IMG/VR virus record: IMGVR_UViG_2667527522_000001 | DNA: 50,608 bases | DNA from: a virus | Lineage: Duplodnaviria > Heunggongvirae > Uroviricota > Caudoviricetes | Direction: 5' to 3' (one strand) | In this document: positions 1 to 50,608 of the stretch, piece by piece | Layout of the letters: every line of letters starts with the position of its first letter | How positions within the stretch are numbered: the stretch's first letter is position 1 | Made by a program: the position numbers and the translations under genes | The notes under the pieces: generated by a model | Told to the model about the DNA's origin: nothing | The model's input: the letters and a program-made list of their open reading frames with translations, nothing else | Databases searched by the model: none

Positions 1-861
1 ATGGTTGACAATGTTTTTAAGAAGAAATTGGCATCAATTAAGAACGAACATGTGTCGGTGTTAGATAGTTACAAAGTAAGATCATTTAAAGAGACTCATA
101 GCGACACGGCCTGTATTGTGCGTATTATTGAAATATATTCACTGAATAAGCTGCGAGCTAAAGGTGAAAAGCTGTATTCACTTACGGGGTTAACAGTACC
201 TGATACGGAAACTGTGGCGAATGAGATCAACCTGCTCCTGAGCCGTTATGCCCAGTTGTGTCGTCAGGAAGAGGAAGAGTTATCTTTCCGGCAGCGTGAA
301 GTGACAAATGCGGAAGTTGCATGGAAAAGCACATTCTCAAAAAACGGCGTCAGTAGCATTGCTGAAGCCAAAACGAATAAAATGGGGCATGCTGAACGAG
401 CGGATGCTGAACGGTATTACCATCTGGCTGTTTCCCGGTTGAATGAACAACATAGTCGATTGAGCACGATCAAGCTTTTGCCGGGAGTACTGGCCGATGA
501 AGGAAACTACATTGGGAAGGGAATCGATAAGCGTTTACTGAATATATTTCCTCAATCCGGCCAGATCCCTGCTGATTTTATTTCTGTATTTAATGACAGT
601 GACGTTGTCCGTGATATTAAATTTATTACTGATGCACTCAAGTCTTTATCTGATTCCGTGAGTGAAATTATTAGTCGTTGTAGCGTTCCAACTGATCGTT
701 ATGTATTAAATAACGGTGGAATGGCAAGAGCTATGGCTTACAGGGAGTACTATCGAGCAGATAATTATGTATTACGTTCAGTCGTAAGTGACCGGGATTA
801 TGTTGAGCATGTAATGAAATACAATCTGGTTACTGAGTACAAAAATAAAATCTTTTCTTAA
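1..861 (+). CDS. Hypothetical protein in scaffold position upstream of the capsid gene; may be 5'-truncated by the window edge
   Basis: 286-codon frame open from base 1; ends 22 bp before the GpN-like gene; no family recognisable by eye. Confidence 0.4.
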   Translation: MVDNVFKKKLASIKNEHVSVLDSYKVRSFKETHSDTACIVRIIEIYSLNKLRAKGEKLYSLTGLTVPDTETVANEINLLLSRYAQLCRQEEEELSFRQREVTNAEVAWKSTFSKNGVSSIAEAKTNKMGHAERADAERYYHLAVSRLNEQHSRLSTIKLLPGVLADEGNYIGKGIDKRLLNIFPQSGQIPADFISVFNDSDVVRDIKFITDALKSLSDSVSEIISRCSVPTDRYVLNNGGMARAMAYREYYRADNYVLRSVVSDRDYVEHVMKYNLVTEYKNKIFS

Positions 862-883
862 ATACTTAAAAAGGTGAAAAACT

Positions 884-1888
884 ATGTATGCCTTCAAAAC
901 TGAAAGGCCGGACGCAGCACGTCGTTATCATAATAAATTCGTCACTGGCACTAACTATCAGGAAGAATCAAACAGACGCTTTGCATTAAGCGAACCTACT
1001 GAAAATATACTGCGTACCTCAATTCTGGAATCCGGGTGGCTTATTAAAAATATTACCCTACGTGATGTTAACGCCGTGTCAGGTAATGCCGTCAATATTG
1101 GTGCCAGTGAACTGTATACCGGACGTGTGGATGGTGGCCGTTTCCACAAAAAAATGGCAATCAATGGTACGGAGTTCTTTCTGACAGAGACGGATACCTG
1201 CGCCCGGATCAGCTATTCCGATATGTCTCATATTTACCATACCGGCGTGCCGGATGAGTTTGAGAAAACGGTTGAGAGCTTTTTTGCCCAGGCATATGCG
1301 CTGGACATGCTGCGGGTCGGTTTCAACGGTGTGTCGATTGCAAATACTACAAACCCGGAAATCAATAAAAAAGGCGAGGATGTCAATATTGGCTGGCATG
1401 CACTGGCGAAAGCCTACGGGAACGGAAAGCAAATCATCTCTGAGCCTGTCACTCTGGGAGAGACTGGCACCTGGAAAAATATTGATGCTCTGGCCAACCA
1501 TCTGATTACAGAGCTTATTGCTGAGCAGTTTCGTGAAGATCCTCGTCTGGTTGTACTGGTTGGGGCAGAGCTGGCAGCACATCAACGCCTGAAGTTATTT
1601 AATGCCGCAGACCGCCCGTCTGATGTGAATGCGGCACAGATGGCTACAAGTTCTGTTGCTGGCCGCTTTGCGTTTATTCCCCCGTTTATGCCGGGTAAGC
1701 GTCTGGCAGTAACGACGCTGGATAATCTGCATATTTACACTCAGGCGATAACACGCTGGTTTCGTGCTGAGTTTGATGATGAAAGCAGTGAATACGTGCA
1801 TTCCTACCTGCGCAATGAAGGTTATGCACTCGGTGAACCTGAACTGTACGCGGCTGTTGATGAGTGCACCCTGACGTTTGCGGATTGA
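884..1888 (+). CDS. P2-family (GpN-like) major capsid protein
   Basis: 334 aa; motifs GFNGV, NIGW, EDPRLVVLVG, LDNLHIY line up with P2 gpN as I recall it; SD-like aaaggtg upstream. Confidence 0.6.
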   Translation: MYAFKTERPDAARRYHNKFVTGTNYQEESNRRFALSEPTENILRTSILESGWLIKNITLRDVNAVSGNAVNIGASELYTGRVDGGRFHKKMAINGTEFFLTETDTCARISYSDMSHIYHTGVPDEFEKTVESFFAQAYALDMLRVGFNGVSIANTTNPEINKKGEDVNIGWHALAKAYGNGKQIISEPVTLGETGTWKNIDALANHLITELIAEQFREDPRLVVLVGAELAAHQRLKLFNAADRPSDVNAAQMATSSVAGRFAFIPPFMPGKRLAVTTLDNLHIYTQAITRWFRAEFDDESSEYVHSYLRNEGYALGEPELYAAVDECTLTFAD

Positions 1889-1901
1889 CTTAGCGACAGA
1901 A

Positions 1902-1930
1902 AGACCCGCTCAGAGGCGGGTCTCGTTTAC
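1902..1930 (+). terminator. Rho-independent terminator-like hairpin after the capsid gene
   Basis: GACCCGC-loop-GCGGGTC stem directly after the stop codon; weak T tract. Confidence 0.4.
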
Positions 1931-2085
1931 AGCATCAGGAAAAATGAAGAACTATTTTTAAGCAGAGGCTTAAGCATGCCAGCGTTAATTAATCCAGGCA
2001 ATGATCAGTTTTCGGTTATAAATTTCTTGCCTCACCAGGAATGCGCGGGATATAGTTTAAAGGTTGCCGCAAAATCGGCAGCCGG

Positions 2086-2141
2086 GCGTAGGAACCCGTG
2101 TTATCTGAAGGCGATACTACACGCGCTAGGCGTGTTTTTTT
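2086..2141 (+). promoter_or_regulatory. seqA-like target box followed by hairpin and T7 run (candidate immunity terminator)
   Basis: GTAGGAAC...TCTGAAGG box at 2088-2111; CACGC-loop-GCGTG stem plus TTTTTTT at 2120-2141. Confidence 0.45.
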
Positions 2142-2261
2142 GTGTCGCAGCTTTGACTCACCTAAAATTTATGGTGTGGTGGCTGATTGTATTTTTTTAT
2201 TTTTTACGCCACATCATCAGAATTATGGTAGTCCAGGCGGGGCAGCTTTCGGGCTGGCCGG

Positions 2262-2289
2262 TATCCTTCAGAGCCGGTATTCCTACCCC
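2262..2289 (+). ncRNA. seqB-like element, candidate CI-RNA-type antisense core
   Basis: TATCCTTCAGAGCCGGTATTCCTAC is the same-strand reverse complement of both halves of the flanking boxes. Confidence 0.4.
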
Positions 2290-2310
2290 CGTCTGGGCTA
2301 CCACCCATGA

Positions 2311-2352
2311 GCGTAGGAACTCCGGTGGTAGCGTTACCCGCTATCTGAAGGA
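2311..2352 (+). promoter_or_regulatory. seqC-like target box overlapping the Shine-Dalgarno of the first alpha-operon ORF
   Basis: GTAGGAAC...TCTGAAGGAGG; AGGAGG sits 10 nt before the ATG at 2363. Confidence 0.45.
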
Positions 2353-2362
2353 GGTTGCCATT

Positions 2363-2566
2363 ATGGCTACAGTCCCTGCTTTATCTCACCCTGAATTTAC
2401 CTTTGTCTTTCTGGCTGTCCGCCGTACAGACCGTGATGCCCGTCCACGCCCTGTGCGTGTAATCGCAGAATGCGAGCATGCTGCACGCCTTAAACTTGCC
2501 ACTGAATTTATCCTGAGCTTTGCTGCCCGTATCCCTGTGAAAAGAGCCGGGGAGGTGGTTGCATGA
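2363..2566 (+). CDS. Small hypothetical protein, first ORF after the immunity region
   Basis: 67-codon ORF with strong SD; the longer 1976-2566 frame upstream is probably not coding. Confidence 0.4.
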   Translation: MATVPALSHPEFTFVFLAVRRTDRDARPRPVRVIAECEHAARLKLATEFILSFAARIPVKRAGEVVA

Positions 2567-2799
2567 AATCCATGAATTTTAAGCAAGGCTGCATATTGAG
2601 TGAACAGGGGGAGAGTCGTCTGTTACGGGCGGCACTGGCCAGTGAGTTTCTTGCAGAGGTCTTGTCCGTGCCCACAGTGAATGGAGCGAGAACTGTTTCA
2701 GCGGAAGGCGCTGCGGCTTTAGTGGCCTGTATTGCCGAACAACTGGATGGCGTTGTTAAGGAAACCAGCACAATTAAGGGAGTGATGCGCGATGAATAA
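2563..2799 (+). CDS. Small hypothetical protein
   Basis: 78 aa; ATGA overlap with upstream ORF, translationally coupled. Confidence 0.45.
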   Translation: MKSMNFKQGCILSEQGESRLLRAALASEFLAEVLSVPTVNGARTVSAEGAAALVACIAEQLDGVVKETSTIKGVMRDE

Positions 2800-3202
2800 T
2801 AATCAAAATTTAAAGGCGCATGCTTTACGAACAGCAGTCTTACGCTACTACATTGCTGATGCATTCATTTCCTTAATGGTGCGTGTTCATAATGAACCTG
2901 TTTATATTGAAGATGGCGAACGAATAGAACTCTCCCACGAAAAAGTGGTGAGTAATATTATTTACCATATTGAAATGCCGTGGGTGAATGAGTTTGGGGC
3001 TGATGCTGGTTGCATACTGGCCGCAGAGAAACTGGAAAAAATGCTTAAACCAGGCTTTATGTCAGAAAATATTCGCCTGTCAGTTTTTGGTGTCACAGAG
3101 ATGCGTGAGGTTTACCGGGATATTATTTTCGGAGCACCTGATGGCGAACTACCCGAAGGTTTTGAATTTGTGAAGCCGGAAGGTCAGGAGGTGCTGCTGT
3201 GA
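2792..3202 (+). CDS. Hypothetical protein
   Basis: 136 aa; stop overlaps the primase GTG start. Confidence 0.5.
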   Translation: MNNNQNLKAHALRTAVLRYYIADAFISLMVRVHNEPVYIEDGERIELSHEKVVSNIIYHIEMPWVNEFGADAGCILAAEKLEKMLKPGFMSENIRLSVFGVTEMREVYRDIIFGAPDGELPEGFEFVKPEGQEVLL

Positions 3203-5886
3203 AAACACCGTCTGTATCCACGATTTCCGGAGCTGCAATTGGGCGCTGGCCTTATATCCTGTCAGCATTAGGTATTAAAGTACCGTCCGCAGGACATCAT
3301 GGGGCTTGCCCTGCCTGTGGTGGAAAAGATCGTTTTCGACTGGACGATAAAGCGGGGCGAGGGACGTGGTTTTGTAATCAGTGCGGTCATGGCGATGGTC
3401 TTGATCTGGTTCGTCTGGTGACAGGAAGAAAGATAAAAGAAGTCGCCGGGATGGTATCTGAGGCGCTTGCATTACCAGAAATACAGGAGAAGCCCGCATT
3501 GCCAGCCAGGAAAAAGGCCGCAGGAAAAGAAGCGGGCGCGGAGCGATATACCAGACTCAGACAGCAGTCCTGCAATGGTGAGCCGGTCTATCTGACAAAT
3601 AAGAGCTTACACGGGTATTCACTTCCCTTGCTGTCACAGCCTTTGAATCTGGCCGGAATAACATTTTCCACCGGTTCATTACTGCTGCCTTTGACGGATA
3701 TTTCCGGGAATATTACTGGTGGCCAGCTTATCAATCCTGACGGGGATAAAAGTCTGCTGCCCGGTAGCCAGCTGTCTGGCGCATTCATTGCCCTGACCGA
3801 TATACCCGCTGAAACACCTGAACAGGTGATTATCACTGAGGGTTTTGCCACGGCGCTTACCGTCAGTCTGCTGACTGAAGGATGGATCGTGGCGGCTGTC
3901 GCTGCCACCAATTTACTGAAGGTGACGGAGCAGATCCGAAAACGCTGGCCGGAAACCCGGATCATTCTGGCCGGAGATAATGATCTGGCTGACGGCAAAG
4001 AAAACACCGGGCGTATTCAGGCAGAGAAAGCCGCCAAAGCGGTGGATGGCTGGGTAACGCTCCCTCCGGTACGCCATAAGGCTGACTGGGATGATTATCG
4101 GCAGGAAGTGGGGAAAGAACGGGCGAGAGATGCCTTTCGTGAAGAAATGACGCTGCATGGCAAAGGGCAGACCCGTTTACCAGAAGGGTTCCGGCTGACA
4201 AAAGAATATTTGTGGTACGACAAGCTGGTTAATAAGTCTGATGGTGATACAGAGATACGTAATATCAAAATTTGCAGTCCGTTGCGGGTGACGGCAATCA
4301 CCAGTGATGCTGATGGAAGTAATTACGGGCGTTTGCTGGAATGGGAAGATACCAACGGAAACAGCCGTAAATGGGCAATGCCGATGGAGATGCTGGGCGG
4401 TAGCGGGGAAGAACTGCGCCGCGTTCTGCTGGTTAACGGGCTTTCTTACATCAACATTAACGGCATGGCCAGAGCATTCCTGATGGAATATATCTCGCTG
4501 TGTAAACCGGACAGAAAAGTAACCTGTGTGAATAAAACTGGCTGGCACGGCGGGGTTTACGTTCTCCAGGATGAAGTGATAGGGCGCGAAGCCCAGTCAG
4601 TCATCTTACAAACATCGAGTGTGCAGGGGCGTGATTTTCGTGTCAGCGGCACATCAGAGGGCTGGCGTGAAAATATAGGCCGTTATTGCATAAAGAATGC
4701 CCGTCTTGCCTTTGCGGTGAGTCTGGCATTTGCTGCCCCCCTTCTGAAACTGGTTGGTATCGGCGGTGGAGGTTATCACCTCAAAGGGGAATCCACAGAC
4801 GGTAAAACCACGACGATGAAAGTGGCTGCATCAGTATGTGGTGGAACAGATTTCTGGCATACGTGGCGGGCGACGGGGAATGCCTTAGAAGGAACGGCGA
4901 GCCGCCGCAATGATGCCACGCTGATGCTGGATGAAATCCGGGAGGTTGACGGCAGGGAGGCGGGAAATATCGCTTATATGCTGGCTAACGGGCAGGGCAA
5001 AGCCAGAGCCAGAACAGATGGTTCGGTAAGGGAAACCAACCGCTGGAATCTGTTGTTTCTGTCTACCGGGGAACTGTCACTGGTAGAGCATGCGGCAAGC
5101 GCCGGGGAACGTACGTATGCCGGGGTTGAGGTCAGAATGATCCAGATCCCAAGCGATTCGGGCAAGTATGGCGTGTTTGAAGAACTTCATGGCTTCAGTA
5201 GCGGGAAAACCCTGGCTGAGCATCTTGAGCAGCACGTAGCGCATTATCATGGTGCACCATTCCGCGACTGGCTGTATTGCCTGACCGCTGATCTGCCGGA
5301 ACTGACCAGTCAGGCGAAAGCCTTATTGAAAGAGTATACCCGAAGGCTGACGCCGGAAAATGCCGGGAATCAGGTTGGCCGGGCTGTTACCCGTTTTGCT
5401 CTGGTTGCGATGGCCGGGGAGCTGGCCACAAAAGCGGGCATCACAGGATGGCCGGAGGGAGAGGCCTTTCGTGCCGCTCAAAGCTGTCTGGCTGCATGGA
5501 TGGCTGACCGGGGCCATACAGCTAATCAGGAAGATAAAGCGGCACTTGAACAGGTTCGGGACTTCATGACGCGTAATCAGTTCAGTCGGTTTGCTGACTG
5601 GAATGACGACAGGAACCGGCCTGTTTCAATGATGGGATTCAGAAAAGTCGATAAAGGAGACAACGTGACAGAGCCGGTTGTGACGTTCTACGTTCTCCCG
5701 TCAGGCTGGAAGGAGATCTGTAAGGGATTTGACTCGCGTAAGGTGGCCAGGTTGTGTGTGGACGCGGGCTGGCTGAAACCCGGTGAAGATGGCCGGACGC
5801 AAAACAGCATTCGCCTGCCAGAAATAGGGCTTAAACGTGTGTACCAGTTCAATACACAGGTACTGGGAAGCGCTGAACCTGAGTGA
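3199..5886 (+). CDS. P4 alpha-type primase/helicase
   Basis: 895 aa; N-terminal CPACGG...CNQCGHGDG zinc-binding motif; long central and C-terminal region; GTG start with AGGAGG SD. Confidence 0.88.
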   Translation: MKTPSVSTISGAAIGRWPYILSALGIKVPSAGHHGACPACGGKDRFRLDDKAGRGTWFCNQCGHGDGLDLVRLVTGRKIKEVAGMVSEALALPEIQEKPALPARKKAAGKEAGAERYTRLRQQSCNGEPVYLTNKSLHGYSLPLLSQPLNLAGITFSTGSLLLPLTDISGNITGGQLINPDGDKSLLPGSQLSGAFIALTDIPAETPEQVIITEGFATALTVSLLTEGWIVAAVAATNLLKVTEQIRKRWPETRIILAGDNDLADGKENTGRIQAEKAAKAVDGWVTLPPVRHKADWDDYRQEVGKERARDAFREEMTLHGKGQTRLPEGFRLTKEYLWYDKLVNKSDGDTEIRNIKICSPLRVTAITSDADGSNYGRLLEWEDTNGNSRKWAMPMEMLGGSGEELRRVLLVNGLSYININGMARAFLMEYISLCKPDRKVTCVNKTGWHGGVYVLQDEVIGREAQSVILQTSSVQGRDFRVSGTSEGWRENIGRYCIKNARLAFAVSLAFAAPLLKLVGIGGGGYHLKGESTDGKTTTMKVAASVCGGTDFWHTWRATGNALEGTASRRNDATLMLDEIREVDGREAGNIAYMLANGQGKARARTDGSVRETNRWNLLFLSTGELSLVEHAASAGERTYAGVEVRMIQIPSDSGKYGVFEELHGFSSGKTLAEHLEQHVAHYHGAPFRDWLYCLTADLPELTSQAKALLKEYTRRLTPENAGNQVGRAVTRFALVAMAGELATKAGITGWPEGEAFRAAQSCLAAWMADRGHTANQEDKAALEQVRDFMTRNQFSRFADWNDDRNRPVSMMGFRKVDKGDNVTEPVVTFYVLPSGWKEICKGFDSRKVARLCVDAGWLKPGEDGRTQNSIRLPEIGLKRVYQFNTQVLGSAEPE

Positions 5887-5912
5887 TTATCGCGTGAGTC
5901 TTATTTTTATGA

Positions 5913-6103
5913 GGTAACACTGGTAACAGAGGTAACACCCGTTACTGATGCGGTTCTTCAGTGTTACCAGTCAAAAATACTGACTGGTAACAGAGGTAAC
6001 AAAAAATGGTGTGTTACCACGCGTTACCTCTTGATTTTGCTAACTGGTAACAGATTAAATCCTTTTAAATCAATAGCGTTACACGTGTTACCAGTGTTAC
6101 ACG
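5913..6103. repeat. Iteron cluster, candidate replication origin or cis replication region
   Basis: At least 6 direct GGTAACA and 4 inverted TGTTACC copies in about 190 bp directly after the primase gene. Confidence 0.55.
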
Positions 6104-6168
6104 TTCAGAACAAGAGGTAGGGATCCAAATCCCTTCTTCTGGCGGGCAACAGTATAGGGCACAGAACG

Positions 6169-6441
6169 ATGAAGATGATGAGAATGTACTGCCCCACATG
6201 TCAGGCAGTAGCACGGATAGGTAAAACAAACAGGAAACACCCACAACTGTACGATGTGTACTGCTATTGCTCTAATGTGGAGTGCGGTCACTCGTTTGTG
6301 ATGAATGTTGCTTTCTCCCATTCCGTTAGTCCAAGCGCGCTGAACGGGCAGGGAAGGGTTAAAGAGCTGATTGATGCAATTCCACCCGAGGAACGGGAAA
6401 AGGCTTTAAAGTTGCTGCTGGCTGCGCAAAAGAATGGGTAA
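6169..6441 (+). CDS. Ogr/Delta-family zinc-finger late activator
   Basis: YCPTCQ...(22 aa)...CSNVEC cysteine spacing as in P2 Ogr. Confidence 0.65.
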   Translation: MKMMRMYCPTCQAVARIGKTNRKHPQLYDVYCYCSNVECGHSFVMNVAFSHSVSPSALNGQGRVKELIDAIPPEEREKALKLLLAAQKNG

Positions 6442-7120
6442 AGTATGCGTCGGGAATGGCCGATCTGTTCCCGGAACCTGAACACAGGATTTCAGTTTAT
6501 ACGGTCATAAAATTATTATTTTTCAACTGGTTATCTTCTTCATGTTTCACAAACCTTCATAAAATCACACACCTAAAATTAATTATCCATTTAATATCAT
6601 AGAGTTGCGTATTCAGGCCATAGATTCGACGGACAGTAAAACTGAAAAAAAATGAATTTCTTTTCATTCTTTTCAGTTCCTGTATCGCAGTACATCTCGA
6701 GGACTGGCACGGACTGGCGGTATCGTTTGTAAAAAATCCAGGCTGAAAATTTTTAGTGATATGAAAACCGCAGGCGGGTGCGGTGTAGTGCCGTTTTGGT
6801 CTGTCGAGCGTATATTTTCCTTTTTCACGATTGCTGCATATCAAAACGAATGTGCAGATATCAGGCCGTGTCAAACCGTGAATCGTGGAGCCTAAATGCC
6901 CAAACTACGTTTGTAGACCTAGCTAGGGGAAGGTTTCCACATATACTGCTACCTATCTTCCAGTCGCTGGTGAGGATCAAGGTAAGCTAACTGGTGAACA
7001 AGAAAAGTACTTTCGTATCTTGCGTACTCGTTTTTTTTGATTAGTATGTACAGGTAGTAACTGGATGGTGAGAATTCGTCATAACTTATCAAATTGCATG
7101 ATGTTTATAGAGTATGAGTA

Positions 7121-8002
7121 ATGAGTCATAATAAAAAGGAATATGCTAAATTTTTCCGTCGCCCCATTTTTTCATCCTTAGCAAAAGGTAAGGATATTTC
7201 GGATTTATTTGGGAGTTTTGATTCTTACTGCTATGAAACACTGTTTTCAAACAATGATAATAATGAACATGAGATTTCACTAAGGGATTTATTTACATCA
7301 TTATATGATTTTTTGCGTCTGAATTATAGAAATGAATATGTTTATAAGACAGCACTTGTCAATAAAATAATATTCGGTAAGCACAGCCCAAAAACAAGTT
7401 CGTCGTCCATAGAGTTACCAATTAAAAACTCTATAGTGGATGTTGCGGTGTTTAATGGTACGTCTACAGCTTACGAGATTAAGACAGAGTATGATTCACC
7501 AAAAAGGTTGATTACTCAAGCCCCTGATTATTTGGATGTTTTTGATAAAGTGTATATAGTTACACATCCAGAGTATGCAAGTAAATATTGTGCTTTAAAT
7601 CTCCCCAGAGTGGGAGTTATGGTTTTGAATAAAAAAGATCAATTGAGTGTCATTAAGGAGGCAGATTCAAATATTGATTATATTAAAAGTGACAGCTTGT
7701 TTTCAGTTCTTAGAAAGGAAGAGTTCTTAGCTATAATAGAAGATTACACTTCAACTAAAATAAATATGCCTAACGGATTGGTTTATGAATATTGTAAAGA
7801 GATATTCATGCAGATGCCATTAAACATAGCAAATAAATACTTTATCTCTGCTATGAAAAAAAGATGTAACGATAAAGTTTTTTTGGATTATATTTATTCT
7901 CTTCCAGCATGTTTACGTGTTTTAGGTTATGCAACACCATTATCAAGAAAGCAAAAAGAATTCATCATGAATTTGATGGATGTAAAAATTAAAATTTGTT
8001 GA
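7121..8002 (+). CDS. Hypothetical protein, gene A of an AT-rich accessory cassette; possible PD-(D/E)xK-like nuclease motif
   Basis: 293 aa; markedly AT-rich versus flanks; IVDVAVF...AYEIK resembles a D...ExK signature. Confidence 0.65.
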   Translation: MSHNKKEYAKFFRRPIFSSLAKGKDISDLFGSFDSYCYETLFSNNDNNEHEISLRDLFTSLYDFLRLNYRNEYVYKTALVNKIIFGKHSPKTSSSSIELPIKNSIVDVAVFNGTSTAYEIKTEYDSPKRLITQAPDYLDVFDKVYIVTHPEYASKYCALNLPRVGVMVLNKKDQLSVIKEADSNIDYIKSDSLFSVLRKEEFLAIIEDYTSTKINMPNGLVYEYCKEIFMQMPLNIANKYFISAMKKRCNDKVFLDYIYSLPACLRVLGYATPLSRKQKEFIMNLMDVKIKIC

Positions 8003-8466
8003 TATCCTCAGGAGTTGTAAGTTATGTATAGCCCATATTTGTATGCGAGAAGTACAGAGTTATTATGCCTTAGGGACCTCGTTGCGAAGGGAGTTAGCCT
8101 AAATGGTCTGCTACCAATTTTAGAACCAATTAACGTCAATACGAGAAATTTATTAACATGTTTAAATGTTTGGAATTCTGACATAATTGTTATCCTTAAT
8201 CCTTATCAGGAAGATTTTTCTTCACACAATAACGTCTTAACTTTAAATCAAAATTTATCAAGTGTATTAACAAATAAAAATAATATCATCTCTGGATATC
8301 TTATTCAGCCCAATACAACGATTAATGATATTAATAATTGGTTGAATGCTAACTTAAATAGACGAGTTGCACTTCTATATGATAATCCATCATTATCCAA
8401 CTCTGATATTCGGTAATGGTGCCAACTTACTGATTTAGTGTATGATGGTGTTTTTGAGGTGCTCCC

Positions 8467-8742
8467 GTGGCTTCCATCTCCATCAGTTGTCCCTCCTGCT
8501 CAGCTACTGAAGGCGTGGTGCGTAACGGTAAAAGTACTGCCGGACATCAGCGCTATCTCTGCTCTCACTGCCGTAAAACATGGCAACTGCAGTTCACTTA
8601 CACCGCTTCTCAACCCGGTACACACCAGAAAATCATTGATATGGCCATGAATGGTGTTGGATGCCGGGCAACCGCCCGCATTATGGGCGTTGGCCTCAAC
8701 ACGATTTTACGTCACTTAAAAAACTCAGGCCGCAGTCGGTAA
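8467..8742 (+). CDS. insA: IS1 InsA
   Basis: [42 protein letters not shown] matches IS1 InsA. Confidence 0.9.
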
Positions 8743-9164
8743 CCTCGCGCATACAGCCGGGCAGTGATGTGATTGTCTGCGCTGAAATGGACGAACAGTG
8801 GGGCTACGTCGGTGCTAAATCACGTCAGCGCTGGCTGTTTTACGCGTATGACAGGATACGGAGGACGGTTGTGGCGCACGTCTTCGGTGAACGCACTCTG
8901 GCCACACTGGAGCGTCTTCTGAGCCTGCTGTCGGCCTTTGAGGTCGTGGTATGGATGACGGATGGCTGGCCGCTGTATGAATCCCGCCTGAAGGGAAAGC
9001 TGCACGTAATCAGCAAGCGTTACACTCAGCGCATTGAGCGACATAACCTGAATCTGAGACAACATCTGGCAAGGCTGGGACGGAAGTCACTGTCGTTCTC
9101 AAAATCGGTGGAGCTGCATGACAAAGTCATCGGGCATTATCTGAACATAAAACACTATCAGTAA
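8661..9164 (+). CDS. insB: IS1 InsB frame (transposase InsAB' by -1 frameshift)
   Basis: IS1 InsB sequence; slippery AAAAAAC at about 8718. Confidence 0.85.
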
Positions 9165-9729
9165 GTTGGAGTCATTACCTGATATTCAGTTGTTGGCGAC
9201 AAATCAATTGATTAGTTATCATGTTGTTTTAAATAATAAAATGCTTCCTAATCAGTGCGCTCTTCTTCCTTTGTCGAAGTTAATTATTATTAGCGATAAC
9301 TTTAGAAAGTTAGCAAAAAATGCTGATTATAATGGGCCGGAACTTTTCACGCACGCACATCAATTCGTGGGACAAAATTACTTAGGATTTGGCGATTATA
9401 CAATTACTGGCCAGGTACTAGATCTTGGAGGTGGTCAACCTTCTGCTGTTGCCGCACATTTGGTGTTCAAGAATTTACAAGCGAATACAGTTTGGATTCG
9501 TCATTTTGTATCAAGCAACACGCAACGAGGAAGTTCAAATGTTACTGCAAAATTTTTAGATGTTTCAGATCAAATTACAAATCTTGTTCCCCAACATCCA
9601 ACCCAGTTTGGCAGCAACATTGGTCTTAACTATTATTATTACAATAGTCAACCAACTGTAAGGCATTTCCCTGGGTTGCCAAAAAACAAACAGTATCAAA
9701 TTACTCACCATATTTGTTTCATGCTGGAT

Positions 9730-10953
9730 TTAATAGCAGGTCGTATTTAATAAGCTAGCGTACCATTCCATCATTACTTGTCGATCTTTAATATATTGCG
9801 CATGATTGTAAGTACCTCGAATAGAGTTCTTATCAACATGCGCAAGCTGCATTTCAATCCAGGCACTTTCAAACCCATGCTCATGCAAGATGGTGCTCAT
9901 GGTATGCCTGAAACCGTGACCCGTTAACCGACCGTGATAACCCAGTAGTTTTATCACTTTGTTGATGCTGGCTTCGCTCATTGGTTTACTGACGTCATTC
10001 CGGCCAGGGAAAACGAGGCTGTAATTCCCTGTTATTTCTTGCAGCTTTTTCAGGATATTGATCGCCTGAGTTGATAACGGAACCAGATGGGGGCGGCGTT
10101 TCTTCATCCGTTCTTTGGGGATCTCCCATAAGGCATTATCTAAATCAAACTCAGCCCATTCCGCTGCACGTAGTTCAATTGTTCGCACGCCTGTTAGCAT
10201 CAACAGCTGCGTGGCGTATTTGGTAACTAAACTGCCCTGATAGTTATCCAGAGCATTAACGAACTCGGGCAACTCGCTTTCAGTCAGGAACGGGAAGTGT
10301 TGGGTTTTAGGTTTGTTGAGTGCGATAGCTAAATCGGGTGCAAAATTATACTTTGCTCTACCAGTGGCAACAGCATAACGAAGCACTTCACCACAGCGGC
10401 GGCGGATCTTACTGGTTTGCTCTAGCGCACCTCTTTTCTCTATTTTTTGCAGGACGGTTAGCAGTTCTAATGGTTCAATCTGCTCAATTGGGCGCTGGCC
10501 GATAAAAGGAAAAATATCCTTTTCCATACAATTGAGAACCTCTTTTGCATAACCCTCTGACCAGGTGGCTTTTTTCGATGAGTGCCATTCTCTGGCCACA
10601 GACTCAAAGCTGTTCTCATGCGCGAACTGCAAAGCAATCTTATCTGCTTTTCTGGCTTCACTTGGGTTTATCCCGTTGGCTAACATCGAACGCGCTTCAT
10701 CACGTTTGGTACGTGCCTGTGCCAACGACACATCGCCATATACGCCAAAGGAAATCATCTTAGGCTTACCTGCAAAGCGATAGCGAAAACGCCAGCCTTT
10801 ACTGCCCGCTGTGTCGATCAGGAGTGATAGCCCCATACCATCGTTAAGCGTATAGGGTTTGTCCTTCGGTTTTGCTCTTTTTATTTGGATGTCAGATAGC
10901 AGCATGTGTATAGAAAAAAGATCGAACTCAGTTATACACAATGTTATACGCAA
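9730..10953 (-). CDS. int: Tyrosine integrase, P4 type
   Basis: 407 aa; N-terminal KRAKPKDKPYTLNDGMGLSLLI arm-binding type; C-terminal GHGFRHT...LAHVD...RGTYNHAQY catalytic region. Confidence 0.9.
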   Translation of the reverse strand: MRITLCITEFDLFSIHMLLSDIQIKRAKPKDKPYTLNDGMGLSLLIDTAGSKGWRFRYRFAGKPKMISFGVYGDVSLAQARTKRDEARSMLANGINPSEARKADKIALQFAHENSFESVAREWHSSKKATWSEGYAKEVLNCMEKDIFPFIGQRPIEQIEPLELLTVLQKIEKRGALEQTSKIRRRCGEVLRYAVATGRAKYNFAPDLAIALNKPKTQHFPFLTESELPEFVNALDNYQGSLVTKYATQLLMLTGVRTIELRAAEWAEFDLDNALWEIPKERMKKRRPHLVPLSTQAINILKKLQEITGNYSLVFPGRNDVSKPMSEASINKVIKLLGYHGRLTGHGFRHTMSTILHEHGFESAWIEMQLAHVDKNSIRGTYNHAQYIKDRQVMMEWYASLLNTTCY

Positions 10954-11075
10954 AGATGTATAGATTCCATTAGAAATAATGGTACTTTGCTGGACGAGTA
11001 TAAGGAGATGATATCAGTTAAAACAGTGAGTTATGGAATTAATTGAACTTAGTGAGAAGTGTTCATGGTGTCCCC

Positions 11076-11090
11076 TGCAGACATCTACTT
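11076..11090 (-). other. 15-nt match to the 3' terminus of tRNA-Arg (argW-like); att core candidate
   Basis: Minus strand reads CTGCAGGGGACACCA, preceded by non-tRNA sequence. Confidence 0.5.
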
Positions 11091-49450: not shown

Positions 49451-50608
49451 TCACTCCACCTTTTCATCAAGCCAGTCCGCCCACCACTGCATCATTTCTC
49501 TGCGCTTATCCAGATACTGAGCATGGTTGTAAATCCCGCGCACAGATCCGCCGTTGGCATGTGCCAGTTGCACTTCAATAGCGTCAGCAGGCCATTCGTG
49601 CTCGTTCATAATCGTGCTGAATTCATGCCTGAATCCGTGACCGCTTTCCAGACCCTCATAGCCGATTTGTTTGATCACAAGCAATACCGCGTTCTCGCAG
49701 ATTGGCTTCTTCTTATCGTTGCGCCCGGCAAAAACAAACTCTGAGACTGGTTTGGTGATTGAGCTTAGCGTAGTGAGAAGTTCAACCACCTGGTCTGACA
49801 TCGGGACCACATGAATTTTTCGACCCTTCATCACACTGGCATCGATGGTGATAATCCTGTTTTCAAAATCGACGTTCTTCCATTGCATGGAACGAAGCTC
49901 TTTCGTTCTTAGGGCTGTGTAGCGTAAAACTCTGGTCGCAATGAGCGATACGATGCTTCCTGAAAATGTTGCCAGTGCTTTGTTGAATGCAGGGATCTGG
50001 TCTGCTGGAAGAAACGGGAAGTTCTTCTTGCGGTATCCTTTCATGGCGTCTGCAAGGTCAGGTGCCGGGTTATATTTAGCCCTGCCGGTGACAATAGCGT
50101 AACGGAAAACCTCGCCGCATCTTCTGCGTGCTTTGTTGGCTCGCTCCATTGCACCGCGATCTTCAAATCTGCGGATTACTTCCAGCAGTTGCATCGGCTC
50201 AATATCCTGAATTTCAAGACCGCCGATGATGGGTAAAATGTCGTCATCAAACATTTTGGCAAGTTCAGTTGCATAGCCTACTGACCAGACTTGCTTCTTG
50301 TGCTCGTACCATTCCTTGTAAATCGCACTAAATGAATTGTTGTTAGACGAAGTCTTTTTCGCCTTTACCGGATCGATGCCAACCGAGATGTCTTTCCTCG
50401 CAGTCCATGCCTTATCCCTTGCTTCCTGCAAAGTCATAAGCGGATATTTTCCGACAGTCAGGATTTTCTCCTTACCGTCAATCTTGTAGCGAAGCTGCCA
50501 TACCTTTTTCCCTGATACAGGGACATAAAGGTACAGGCCATTACCATCGAGAAGGCGGTATGGTTTTTCTTTCGGCTTTGCTGCTTCAATCTGCTTAACG
50601 GTGAGCAT
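49451..50608 (-). CDS. int: Tyrosine integrase, P4 type, IntS-like; start codon at the last bases of the window
   Basis: MLTVKQIEAAKPKEKPYRLLDGNGLYLYVPVSGKKVWQLRYKIDGKEK...GHGFRHEF...LAHANGGSVRGIYNHAQY. Confidence 0.9.
   Translation of the reverse strand: MLTVKQIEAAKPKEKPYRLLDGNGLYLYVPVSGKKVWQLRYKIDGKEKILTVGKYPLMTLQEARDKAWTARKDISVGIDPVKAKKTSSNNNSFSAIYKEWYEHKKQVWSVGYATELAKMFDDDILPIIGGLEIQDIEPMQLLEVIRRFEDRGAMERANKARRRCGEVFRYAIVTGRAKYNPAPDLADAMKGYRKKNFPFLPADQIPAFNKALATFSGSIVSLIATRVLRYTALRTKELRSMQWKNVDFENRIITIDASVMKGRKIHVVPMSDQVVELLTTLSSITKPVSEFVFAGRNDKKKPICENAVLLVIKQIGYEGLESGHGFRHEFSTIMNEHEWPADAIEVQLAHANGGSVRGIYNHAQYLDKRREMMQWWADWLDEKVE

Follow-up and report, generated by a model that had tools for sequence, protein, structure and literature searches.

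A short region near the left end of a 50.6-kb stretch of DNA (50,608 nucleotides, hereafter called the window, i.e. the whole sequence analyzed) is very probably the switch that controls lysogeny and immunity in a P4-related satellite that has integrated into the Escherichia coli chromosome, and it probably works by the P4 mechanism. This reading is carried by the anatomy of the region and its family membership, by strand-specific covariation at every proposed pairing, by the conservation of a reading frame through the module and by a C-rich tract behind its last box. The system itself is already known and is detected by curated models. Its combination of boxes differs from that of P4, which is a difference at the level of alleles, and we know of no experimental test of this combination.

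The underlying mechanism was established in the 1990s by work on P4, P1 and N15. In P4, the CI RNA is a stable RNA processed from the leader transcript by RNase P and PNPase, and it confers superinfection immunity. In the linear plasmid prophages of the N15 group (N15, phiKO2 and PY54), an anti-immunity locus is controlled by a small processed RNA, and we take the cargo of this locus to be an antirepressor operon.

Results

Layout of the module and complementarity of its boxes

The features of the region are collected in Table 1. Each of the two outer elements carries an a box followed by a b box, and the strings common to both elements extend to GCGTAGGAAC and TATCTGAAGG. The middle element contains b' and a'. 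On the same strand, these are b and a in reverse complement, and they stand in inverted order, as antiparallel pairing expects. The first-pass annotation had described boxes 1 and 3 as alike and the middle box as their reverse complement on the same strand, and this can be read directly from the sequence. Its coordinates pointed to the correct sites and needed two adjustments: the a pairing comprises 7 bp instead of 8, because the C at 2320 (2095 in the upstream copy) has no partner, and the ATG lies at 2363, inside the end coordinate of 2365 that had been given.

In a check against chance, the pattern GTAGGAAC-N5-30-TCTGAAGG has two matches in the 50.6-kb window versus 0.00 expected from 100 shuffles, and neither TCTGAAGG nor its complement occurs again anywhere in these 50.6 kb.

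The last box had been said to overlap the AGGAGG Shine-Dalgarno sequence (SD) of the first ORF. It does: b2 ends at 2352 and thus covers four bases of the AGGAGG at 2349-2354, with the ATG following at 2363. Occlusion of the SD had also been presented as a component added to the logic of P4. Here, only the overlap itself stands, since P4 and the P1-like phage RCS47 have the same one; SD occlusion would therefore belong to the ancestral design.

Table 1. Features of the immunity region and of the genes behind it (window coordinates).
Feature	Position	Strand	Remarks
Eta/Ash-type ORF, 196 aa	1976-2566	+	SD AGAGG at 1964-1968; in frame with the Icd-like ORF
Sigma-70-type promoter, TTGCCT-18-TATAGT	2027-2056	+	predicted start near 2063
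seqA/IsrK-like leader RNA	2063-2141	+	two 5' hairpins, b1, intrinsic terminator
Box a1, GTAGGAA (+C at 2095)	2088-2094	+	proposed upstream target of a'
Box b1, TCTGAAGG	2104-2111	+	proposed upstream target of b'
Intrinsic terminator, 6-bp stem, 5-nt loop, then T7	2119-2141	+	T7 at 2135-2141, the first T closing the stem
CI RNA (Rfam C4 antisense RNA)	2221-2308	+	predicted mature stem 2226-2303 (78 nt), two inner hairpins
Box b', TCCTTCAGA	2264-2272	+	half of "seqB"; loop of the second inner CI hairpin
Box a', TTCCTAC	2280-2286	+	other half of "seqB"; single-stranded CI junction
Alternative hairpin	2297-2332	+	CI-stem 3' strand 2297-2305 pairs with 2324-2332; a2 in the 18-nt loop
Box a2, GTAGGAA (+C at 2320)	2313-2319	+	part of seqC
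Box b2, TCTGAAGGA	2344-2352	+	part of seqC; over the SD AGGAGG 2349-2354
Icd-like ORF, 67 aa, P4 kil position	2363-2566	+	NCBIfam NF033153 phage_ICD_like
Downstream operon orf78, orf136, 895-aa primase	2563-5886	+	from the ORF list
Primase, 895 aa	3199-5886	+	domains Zn_Ribbon_Prim, Toprim_3, DUF927

Related loci in Enterobacterales

Comparative evidence was drawn from a scan of one genome per species, with a pattern that described the CI scaffold only and left the boxes free. It yielded 33 true loci from about 15 genera of Enterobacterales; one further hit, in Nitrososphaera, was a false positive of the pattern. The alignment used below, A2, comprises 34 sequences, namely the window, P4 and 32 further loci. 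A locus of Serratia silvae, which has the RNA module and a different downstream gene, was left out of it.

Promoter, seqA and terminator

When positions 1850-3300 were scanned, a single promoter-like site was found on the + strand (2027-2056), and its CTTGC and TATAGT are kept in most loci of A2. The -10 consensus feature of the P4 record X02534 (2367-2372) maps to the aligned position. The window promoter is thus the positional homologue of PLE, the constitutive immunity promoter of P4.

Downstream of the predicted start, the leader has two 5' hairpins, 2063-2082 and 2083-2098, the latter of which carries a1 in its loop. The Rfam family isrK (RF01394) matches 2063-2140 with 68.9 bits against a gathering score of 50, over model positions 1-77 of 77. 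The family c4-a1b1 (RF03163) gives 43.8 bits (E 1e-9), which is under its gathering score of 46.7; P4 itself scores 44.1, so that falling short of the threshold is typical of the P4 subgroup rather than particular to the present locus. The seqA helices are 98-100% paired in the 34 sequences, with compensatory changes.

A hairpin and a T7 run had been noted after box 1, and we indeed find a stem at 2119-2135 followed by T7 at 2135-2141. It is the sole terminator-like site of the 1850-3300 scan, apart from the terminator at the end of the capsid gene (1902-1923). It is kept in all aligned loci, with a GC to CG swap in 13 sequences, and the same terminator is present in P4 and in the P1-like RCS47. 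By family assignment, box 1 and this terminator together form a putative IsrK-like unit, which the first-pass annotation had overlooked.

The CI RNA and an alternative hairpin

The CI region matches the Rfam family C4 (RF01695) over the full length of the model (positions 1-87 of 87), scoring 81.1 bits (E 2e-14) where the gathering score is 45. A tRNA-like stem followed by ACCACCCA spans 2226-2307. The internal helices of CI are 100% paired, five pairs showing double changes, and the predicted minimum free energy is -47.2 kcal/mol. In the predicted 78-nt CI both boxes are exposed, with unpaired probabilities of 0.98-1.0 for a' and of about 1.0 for the core of b' (2266-2270).

The folding and duplex predictions that had been suggested as a check thus agree with the proposed role of the boxes, which are unpaired in CI and have cognate duplexes of -9.3 to -14.2 kcal/mol. 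More precisely, the predicted energies are -12.0 kcal/mol for b'/b1, -9.3 for a'/a1, -14.2 for b'/b2 and -9.3 for a'/a2. Combinations of the window CI with P4 targets, and of the P4 CI with window targets, reach only -1.9 to -6.1 kcal/mol. All these duplexes were computed box by box, since the CI stem is also complementary to a downstream arm and duplexes of the whole CI are long and uninformative.

This downstream arm is part of an alternative hairpin. In the 34 sequences it is 99% paired, with five of its nine pairs changed on both sides, versus 23-69% pairing in slid controls. The arm is also found in the P1-like RCS47 (GCTACCGC / GCGGTAGC). Such a hairpin would compete with the CI stem and would present a2 in its loop.

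Covariation of the boxes

The 34 sequences contain 3 types of a box and 6-7 types of b box, which occur in 11-12 combinations. The three a boxes of a locus (a1, a' and a2) agree with one another, as do its three b boxes (b1, b' and b2), with one exception: in the Mangrovibacter locus L037, the seqA boxes are of a different type from those of its own CI and seqC. The pairing of seqA is therefore not always maintained. Two Citrobacter loci (L011 and L021) share the window combination, TAGGAA with TCTGAAGG, while the a-type of P4, TGAGAA, is unique to P4 in this sample.

Taken together, the CI stems and the b'/b2 and a'/a2 pairings are 100% paired in A2 with 15 pairs changed on both sides, versus 33-49% in slid controls. 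Both target pairings downstream of CI are individually 100% paired, with two-sided changes in 7 of 9 pairs for b'/b2 and in 3 of 7 for a'/a2. For the upstream set, which comprises the hairpins of seqA, the terminator and the pairings a1/a' and b1/b', pairing amounts to 99.1% and 13 pairs are double-changed; a1/a' by itself is 99.6% paired with two-sided changes in 3 of 7 pairs, and b1/b' 98.9% paired with such changes in 6 of 8. Nearly all one-sided changes in A2 are G-U wobbles, a pattern that is consistent with RNA pairing on the + strand and that speaks against DNA sites.

Nested reading frames and the downstream operon

A conserved Eta/Ash-type ORF encloses the whole module, a point that the first-pass annotation had overlooked. 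This ORF spans the promoter, seqA, the terminator, CI and seqC, and the Icd-like ORF is its C-terminal third. Pfam PF10554 (Phage_ASH) matches residues 26-141 with 111.7 bits, i.e. nt 2051-2398, the RNA module itself. Counting upstream from the kil ATG, 30 of the 34 loci have 357 nt or more of open frame in the phase of kil. The spacing between seqA and CI falls into classes of 157, 166, 169, 187 and 214, all of them 1 mod 3, the single exception being a T6 in place of T7. The frame is thus kept across five indel classes, and we conclude that the long ORF is under coding selection.

The Icd-like ORF matches NCBIfam NF033153 (phage_ICD_like) with 68.1 bits versus a cut-off of 25, and its counterpart in the alignment with P4 is the ORF beginning at position 3260 of our P4 sequence, L002 (the kil position). 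The arrangement fits the eta/kil pair of P4, which is likewise nested and in which translation of eta from upstream transcripts prevents termination (PMC10111431, summarising Forti 1999).

The Rho-dependent terminator of P4, timm, corresponds to X51522 8365-8209 (PMC3177188). We mapped it to L002 3260-3416, so that it begins exactly at the kil ATG. The equivalent stretch of the window, 2363-2519 (157 nt), contains 31% C and 21% G versus 18-20% C and 26-28% G in its flanks. Such a composition would allow Rho to load on the RNA when it is untranslated.

The first ORF had been said to head a primase operon. The Icd-like ORF is in fact followed by orf78, orf136 and the primase, and stop and start codons overlap at 2563-2566, 2792-2799 and 3199-3202. 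The N-terminal 325 aa of the primase are 38% identical to the P4 alpha protein; its C-terminal half is DUF927 and is not P4-alpha-like. No match to an ANT/Bro-type antirepressor was obtained among the downstream genes, and no homologue of P4 epsilon or orf151 was detected among the downstream ORFs.

Genomic context and occurrence

Positions 1-8000 of the window are 100% identical in many ST131-type E. coli genomes; coverage of this stretch reaches at least 80% in 446 genomes. In strain SA186, the element extends from a partial tRNA-Arg repeat by dsdC to an integrase by tRNA-Arg. It encodes in this order an HTH protein, a 286-aa protein of no recognized family, a P2-family major capsid protein, the RNA region, two small ORFs, the 895-aa primase, Ogr/Delta, sce7726/sce7725 and the integrase. 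For the 286-aa protein (positions 1-861), no family was found in Pfam, NCBIfam or PHROGs, nor by tblastn against phages. The gene directly upstream of the module is the capsid gene, which ends in the terminator at 1902-1923, and there is no alpA homologue as in P4.

The 331-nt module is widespread: among 5,426 complete E. coli genomes, 2,706 match some part of it and 1,595 match 80% of it or more. In the RefSeq records inspected, it is labelled only as protein, "Icd-like" or "ash family", and the RNA gene is without annotation. In that of SA186, a 196-aa "Icd-like" protein runs across the entire module.

Comparison with known systems

The P4 immunity region was the best match in a BLAST search against phages. 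Aligned with it, a comparison that had been proposed at the outset, the window shows 78% column identity over about 610 nt. The likeness to P4 CI-RNA immunity that had been claimed is accordingly well founded, and goes beyond mere likeness of logic: the region is a true homologue of that of P4. Promoter, seqA, CI and seqC follow in the same order, the same three Rfam families match in the same order with similar scores, the promoter has the same position and the same intrinsic terminator follows seqA. P4 also has the same AGGAGG-N8-ATG under its seqC and a homologous Kil/Icd-like ORF nested in a long Eta/Ash ORF, with a primase operon downstream. Outside the module, the two share the integrase, a sce7726-family gene, a Delta-type activator and the N-terminal part of the primase.

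Where the module departs from P4, it does so in the boxes, and in a concerted way at all three sites, P4 having TGAGAA for a and TTCACAGG for b whereas the window has TAGGAA and TCTGAAGG. The spacer between seqA and CI is 27 nt shorter in the window. P4 lacks the small ORFs and the capsid gene of the element; upstream of the module it carries its alpA homologue, ori and sid-delta-psu, where the window has the P2-family capsid gene and its terminator. A survey paper on P4-like satellites discusses neither the immunity RNA nor satellite capsid genes.

The immI region of P1/P7 (c4, icd-ant), judged on the P1-like RCS47, has an identical layout of a1 b1, a' b' and a2 b2. In RCS47, b1 is followed by a terminator, b2 covers the icd SD, the first ORF is Icd-like (MATVP..HPEF) and the alternative arm is present between a2 and b2; the same three Rfam matches are obtained in the same order (75 bits for C4 versus 81 in the window). 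However, the DNA similarity is much lower (about 70% over about 170 nt), and the cargo of P1 is the antirepressor Ant whereas that of the window is a primase operon. In the N15 group, the seqA and CI segments have matches of 80-83% identity in PY54, phiKO2 and the Klebsiella phage 48ST307. Only these RNA segments align, not their flanks, and an Icd-like gene is annotated in one record.

In P4-like prophages, the Rfam families isrK and C4 correspond to seqA and the CI RNA, respectively, and termination control has been described for these RNAs (PMC3632133, PMC4825925, PMC10111431). A parallel can also be drawn with the IsrK/STnc1160-orf45-anrP locus of the Salmonella prophage Gifsy-1, where IsrK is a structural homologue of seqA and a processed C4-like RNA lies downstream. 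There, the short RNA is described as activating translation of the long isoform, and the locus governs a lambdoid antiterminator/antirepressor cascade, not satellite replication genes (PMC4825925). Gifsy-1 is the only case in which IsrK is known as an Hfq-binding sRNA that activates translation of the long isoform in trans (PMC4825925).

Discussion

Proposed mechanism

RNA processing, Rho dependence and the immunity phenotype are taken here from the experiments on P4, P1 and N15, and the following scheme is proposed by analogy with them. The constitutive promoter at 2027-2056 would transcribe the leader, and part of the transcripts would end at the terminator at 2119-2141, giving a seqA/IsrK-like RNA of about 78 nt. 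In the transcripts that read through, the tRNA-like stem (2226-2303) would be processed into a stable CI RNA of about 78 nt (Rfam C4), in which a hairpin loop would expose b' and a single-stranded junction a'. These two boxes would pair with a1/b1 in seqA and a2/b2 in seqC on nascent transcripts from the same promoter. Pairing at b2 would hide the SD of the 67-aa Icd-like (Kil) ORF. The C-rich RNA of 2363-2519, the equivalent of P4 timm, would then be left untranslated and open to Rho, and transcription would stop before orf78, orf136 and the primase. The outcome would be a quiescent satellite, and an incoming satellite with the same a and b boxes would likewise be shut off.

Transcription coming from upstream, by analogy with P4 from a late promoter, would have the opposite effect. 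Eta/Ash would be translated through seqA, the terminator, CI and seqC, and the block would be overridden. The cargo is unlike that of P4 in that epsilon and orf151 are missing and one half of the primase is DUF927, and the physiological output could therefore differ.

The weak duplexes predicted between the RNAs of the two systems lead us to predict that the element is heteroimmune to P4, whose classic heteroimmune relative is retronphage phiR73. On the other hand, co-immunity should exist with L011 and L021, the two Citrobacter elements that share its boxes.

Alternative explanations

One could assume that the short RNA adds a layer of control of its own. In this scenario, modeled on Gifsy-1, the 2063-2141 RNA would act in trans as an anti-antisense or decoy on a'/b', free the SD at 2349-2354 and activate the operon. 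We consider such a layer possible, albeit rather unlikely. Gifsy-1 IsrK binds the long read-through transcript and opens the downstream ribosome-binding site (PMC4825925), and the isrK match in the window is full-length and ends in its own terminator. Moreover, a1 and b1 are perfect complements of a' and b' (-9.3 and -12.0 kcal/mol), and the conserved alternative hairpin means that the long transcript can switch folds. A repressive role is nevertheless suggested by the report that P4 seqA is necessary for the establishment of lysogeny, and also by TraDIS in S. Typhi, where IsrK-like elements belonging to P4-like prophages were required (PMC3632133).

A control of the P1/P7 type only, in which the C4-like RNA would be a purely translational repressor of the Icd-like ORF and of the genes coupled to it, with no regulated termination, seems improbable to us. 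Its appeal lies in b2, which sits on the SD exactly as in the P1-like RCS47, and in the overlapping stop and start codons downstream, so that translational coupling alone could spread the repression. The region is, however, far nearer to P4 (78% identity) than to P1, the P4 homologue of 2363-2519 is an experimentally used Rho-dependent terminator (PMC3177188) and the window keeps its C-rich, G-poor composition. Translational repression and regulated termination are in any case compatible with each other and not exclusive.

That the repeats are a by-product of coding, arising from conserved peptide motifs of Eta/Ash (1976-2566), is very improbable. The ORF is indeed kept in frame and Phage_ASH scores 111.7 bits, but a middle element that is a reverse complement is inexplicable by a peptide repeat, box changes across loci keep base pairing, G-U included, and not amino acids, and the RNA covariance models score 69-81 bits. 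Still harder to sustain is the idea that the boxes are DNA operators for a protein repressor such as the HTH protein encoded at the left end of the element, for even though repeated 8-10-mers near a promoter are typical of operators, every box lies downstream of the promoter and they are spread across 270 bp, the one-sided G-U changes of the + strand would be A-C mismatches at the DNA level and the middle element occupies loop and junction positions in an RNA fold that has strong support.

Significance

Returning to the P4-type switch, a tentative extension, which we put forward with low confidence, is that the a and b boxes form a two-part combinatorial address that reassorts among P4-related satellites, in addition to a covarying alternative hairpin that would compete with the CI stem. 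One natural chimera is at hand, L037, whose seqA no longer matches its own CI. If true and if undescribed so far, the address and the hairpin would give, respectively, a matrix of immunity groups at the level of populations and a co-transcriptional switch between a CI-producing and a target-presenting fold.

The main value of the present analysis is one of annotation, and it opens no new biological question. Recognizing the RNA would explain the silence of the replication operon of the satellite, and the types of its boxes predict which satellites exclude each other.

An RNA module that is also a reading frame

The promoter, seqA, CI RNA and seqC of the satellite lie wholly within a frame annotated in RefSeq as an 'Icd-like' protein, with no RNA gene annotated at 1976-2566. 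The Phage_ASH family (Pfam PF10554) aligns with nt 2051-2398, i.e. the promoter-to-seqC RNA region itself. This region appears to be both translated, as the equivalent of P4 eta, and structured as RNA, because the frame is kept in 33 of the 34 aligned Enterobacterales loci over five spacer-length classes.

A possible fold switch could also be recognized at 2297-2332. Here, nucleotides 2324-2332 can re-pair with the 3' strand of the CI stem, and box a2 is then displayed in the loop. This alternative hairpin is conserved (99% paired, with compensatory pairs at 5 of 9) and is also found in the P1-like phage RCS47.

A natural chimera is provided by the locus of Mangrovibacter yixingensis (L037:1274-1655). 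Its seqA boxes are TAGGAA/CTCAATGG, but the TGGAAA/TCTAACGG type is found in its CI RNA and seqC; seqA, as the upstream target, is therefore mismatched to the CI RNA of its own locus.

Among the comparison loci, the contig of L014 is named 'Clostridiales bacterium MAG' and that of L018 'Vagococcus sp.'; both bear enterobacterial P4-type modules. L014 is nearly identical to P4, the a box excepted. Contamination or mis-binning is likely for both.

Organization of the satellite and its neighbour

We examined the left part of the satellite in the window (1-1888) and in the copy from strain SA186 (L001 8683-10888). This P4-related satellite possesses its own P2-family major capsid gene (PF05125, 226 bits). 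Together with the 286-aa gene, which gave no match when compared with Pfam, NCBIfam, PHROGs and phage genomes, it stands where P4 has sid-delta-psu. A TGT-N12-ACA dyad, the Ogr/Delta-type late-promoter motif, precedes the HTH gene (L001 8683), and a second one, at window 6095, precedes the ogr/delta gene. In strain SA186, a run of about 18 CCCAGC hexanucleotides (L001 ~8390-8490) lies just within the satellite left end, upstream of window position 1.

Further right, the sce7725-family gene is interrupted by an IS1 copy (~8417-9185), at the position of variable defence cargo in P4-like satellites.

Features of the window
Feature	Position	Strand	Remark
286-aa gene	1-861		before capsid gene
Major capsid gene	884-1888
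196-aa 'Icd-like' protein	1976-2566		spans entire RNA module
sce7725-family gene, N-terminal part	8024-8416
IS1 transposase ORF	8661-9164
sce7725-family gene, C-terminal part	9166-9750
Satellite integrase	9730-10953	minus
Partial tRNA-Arg 3' end, TGGTGTCCCCTGCAG	11068-11082		after satellite integrase
Integrase-sized ORF	49451-50608		assigned by size

Nowhere in the window is there an intact tRNA. The partial tRNA-Arg is followed by a lambdoid/P22-like prophage that begins with torI, includes ERF, anti-RecBCD, kil and cIII, and probably ends with the integrase-sized ORF. Among 5,426 complete E. coli genomes, only three (MNCRE44, Ecol_276 and 875) have the junction between satellite and prophage. 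Positions 9730-50608 are a tandem array of satellite and prophage at argW.
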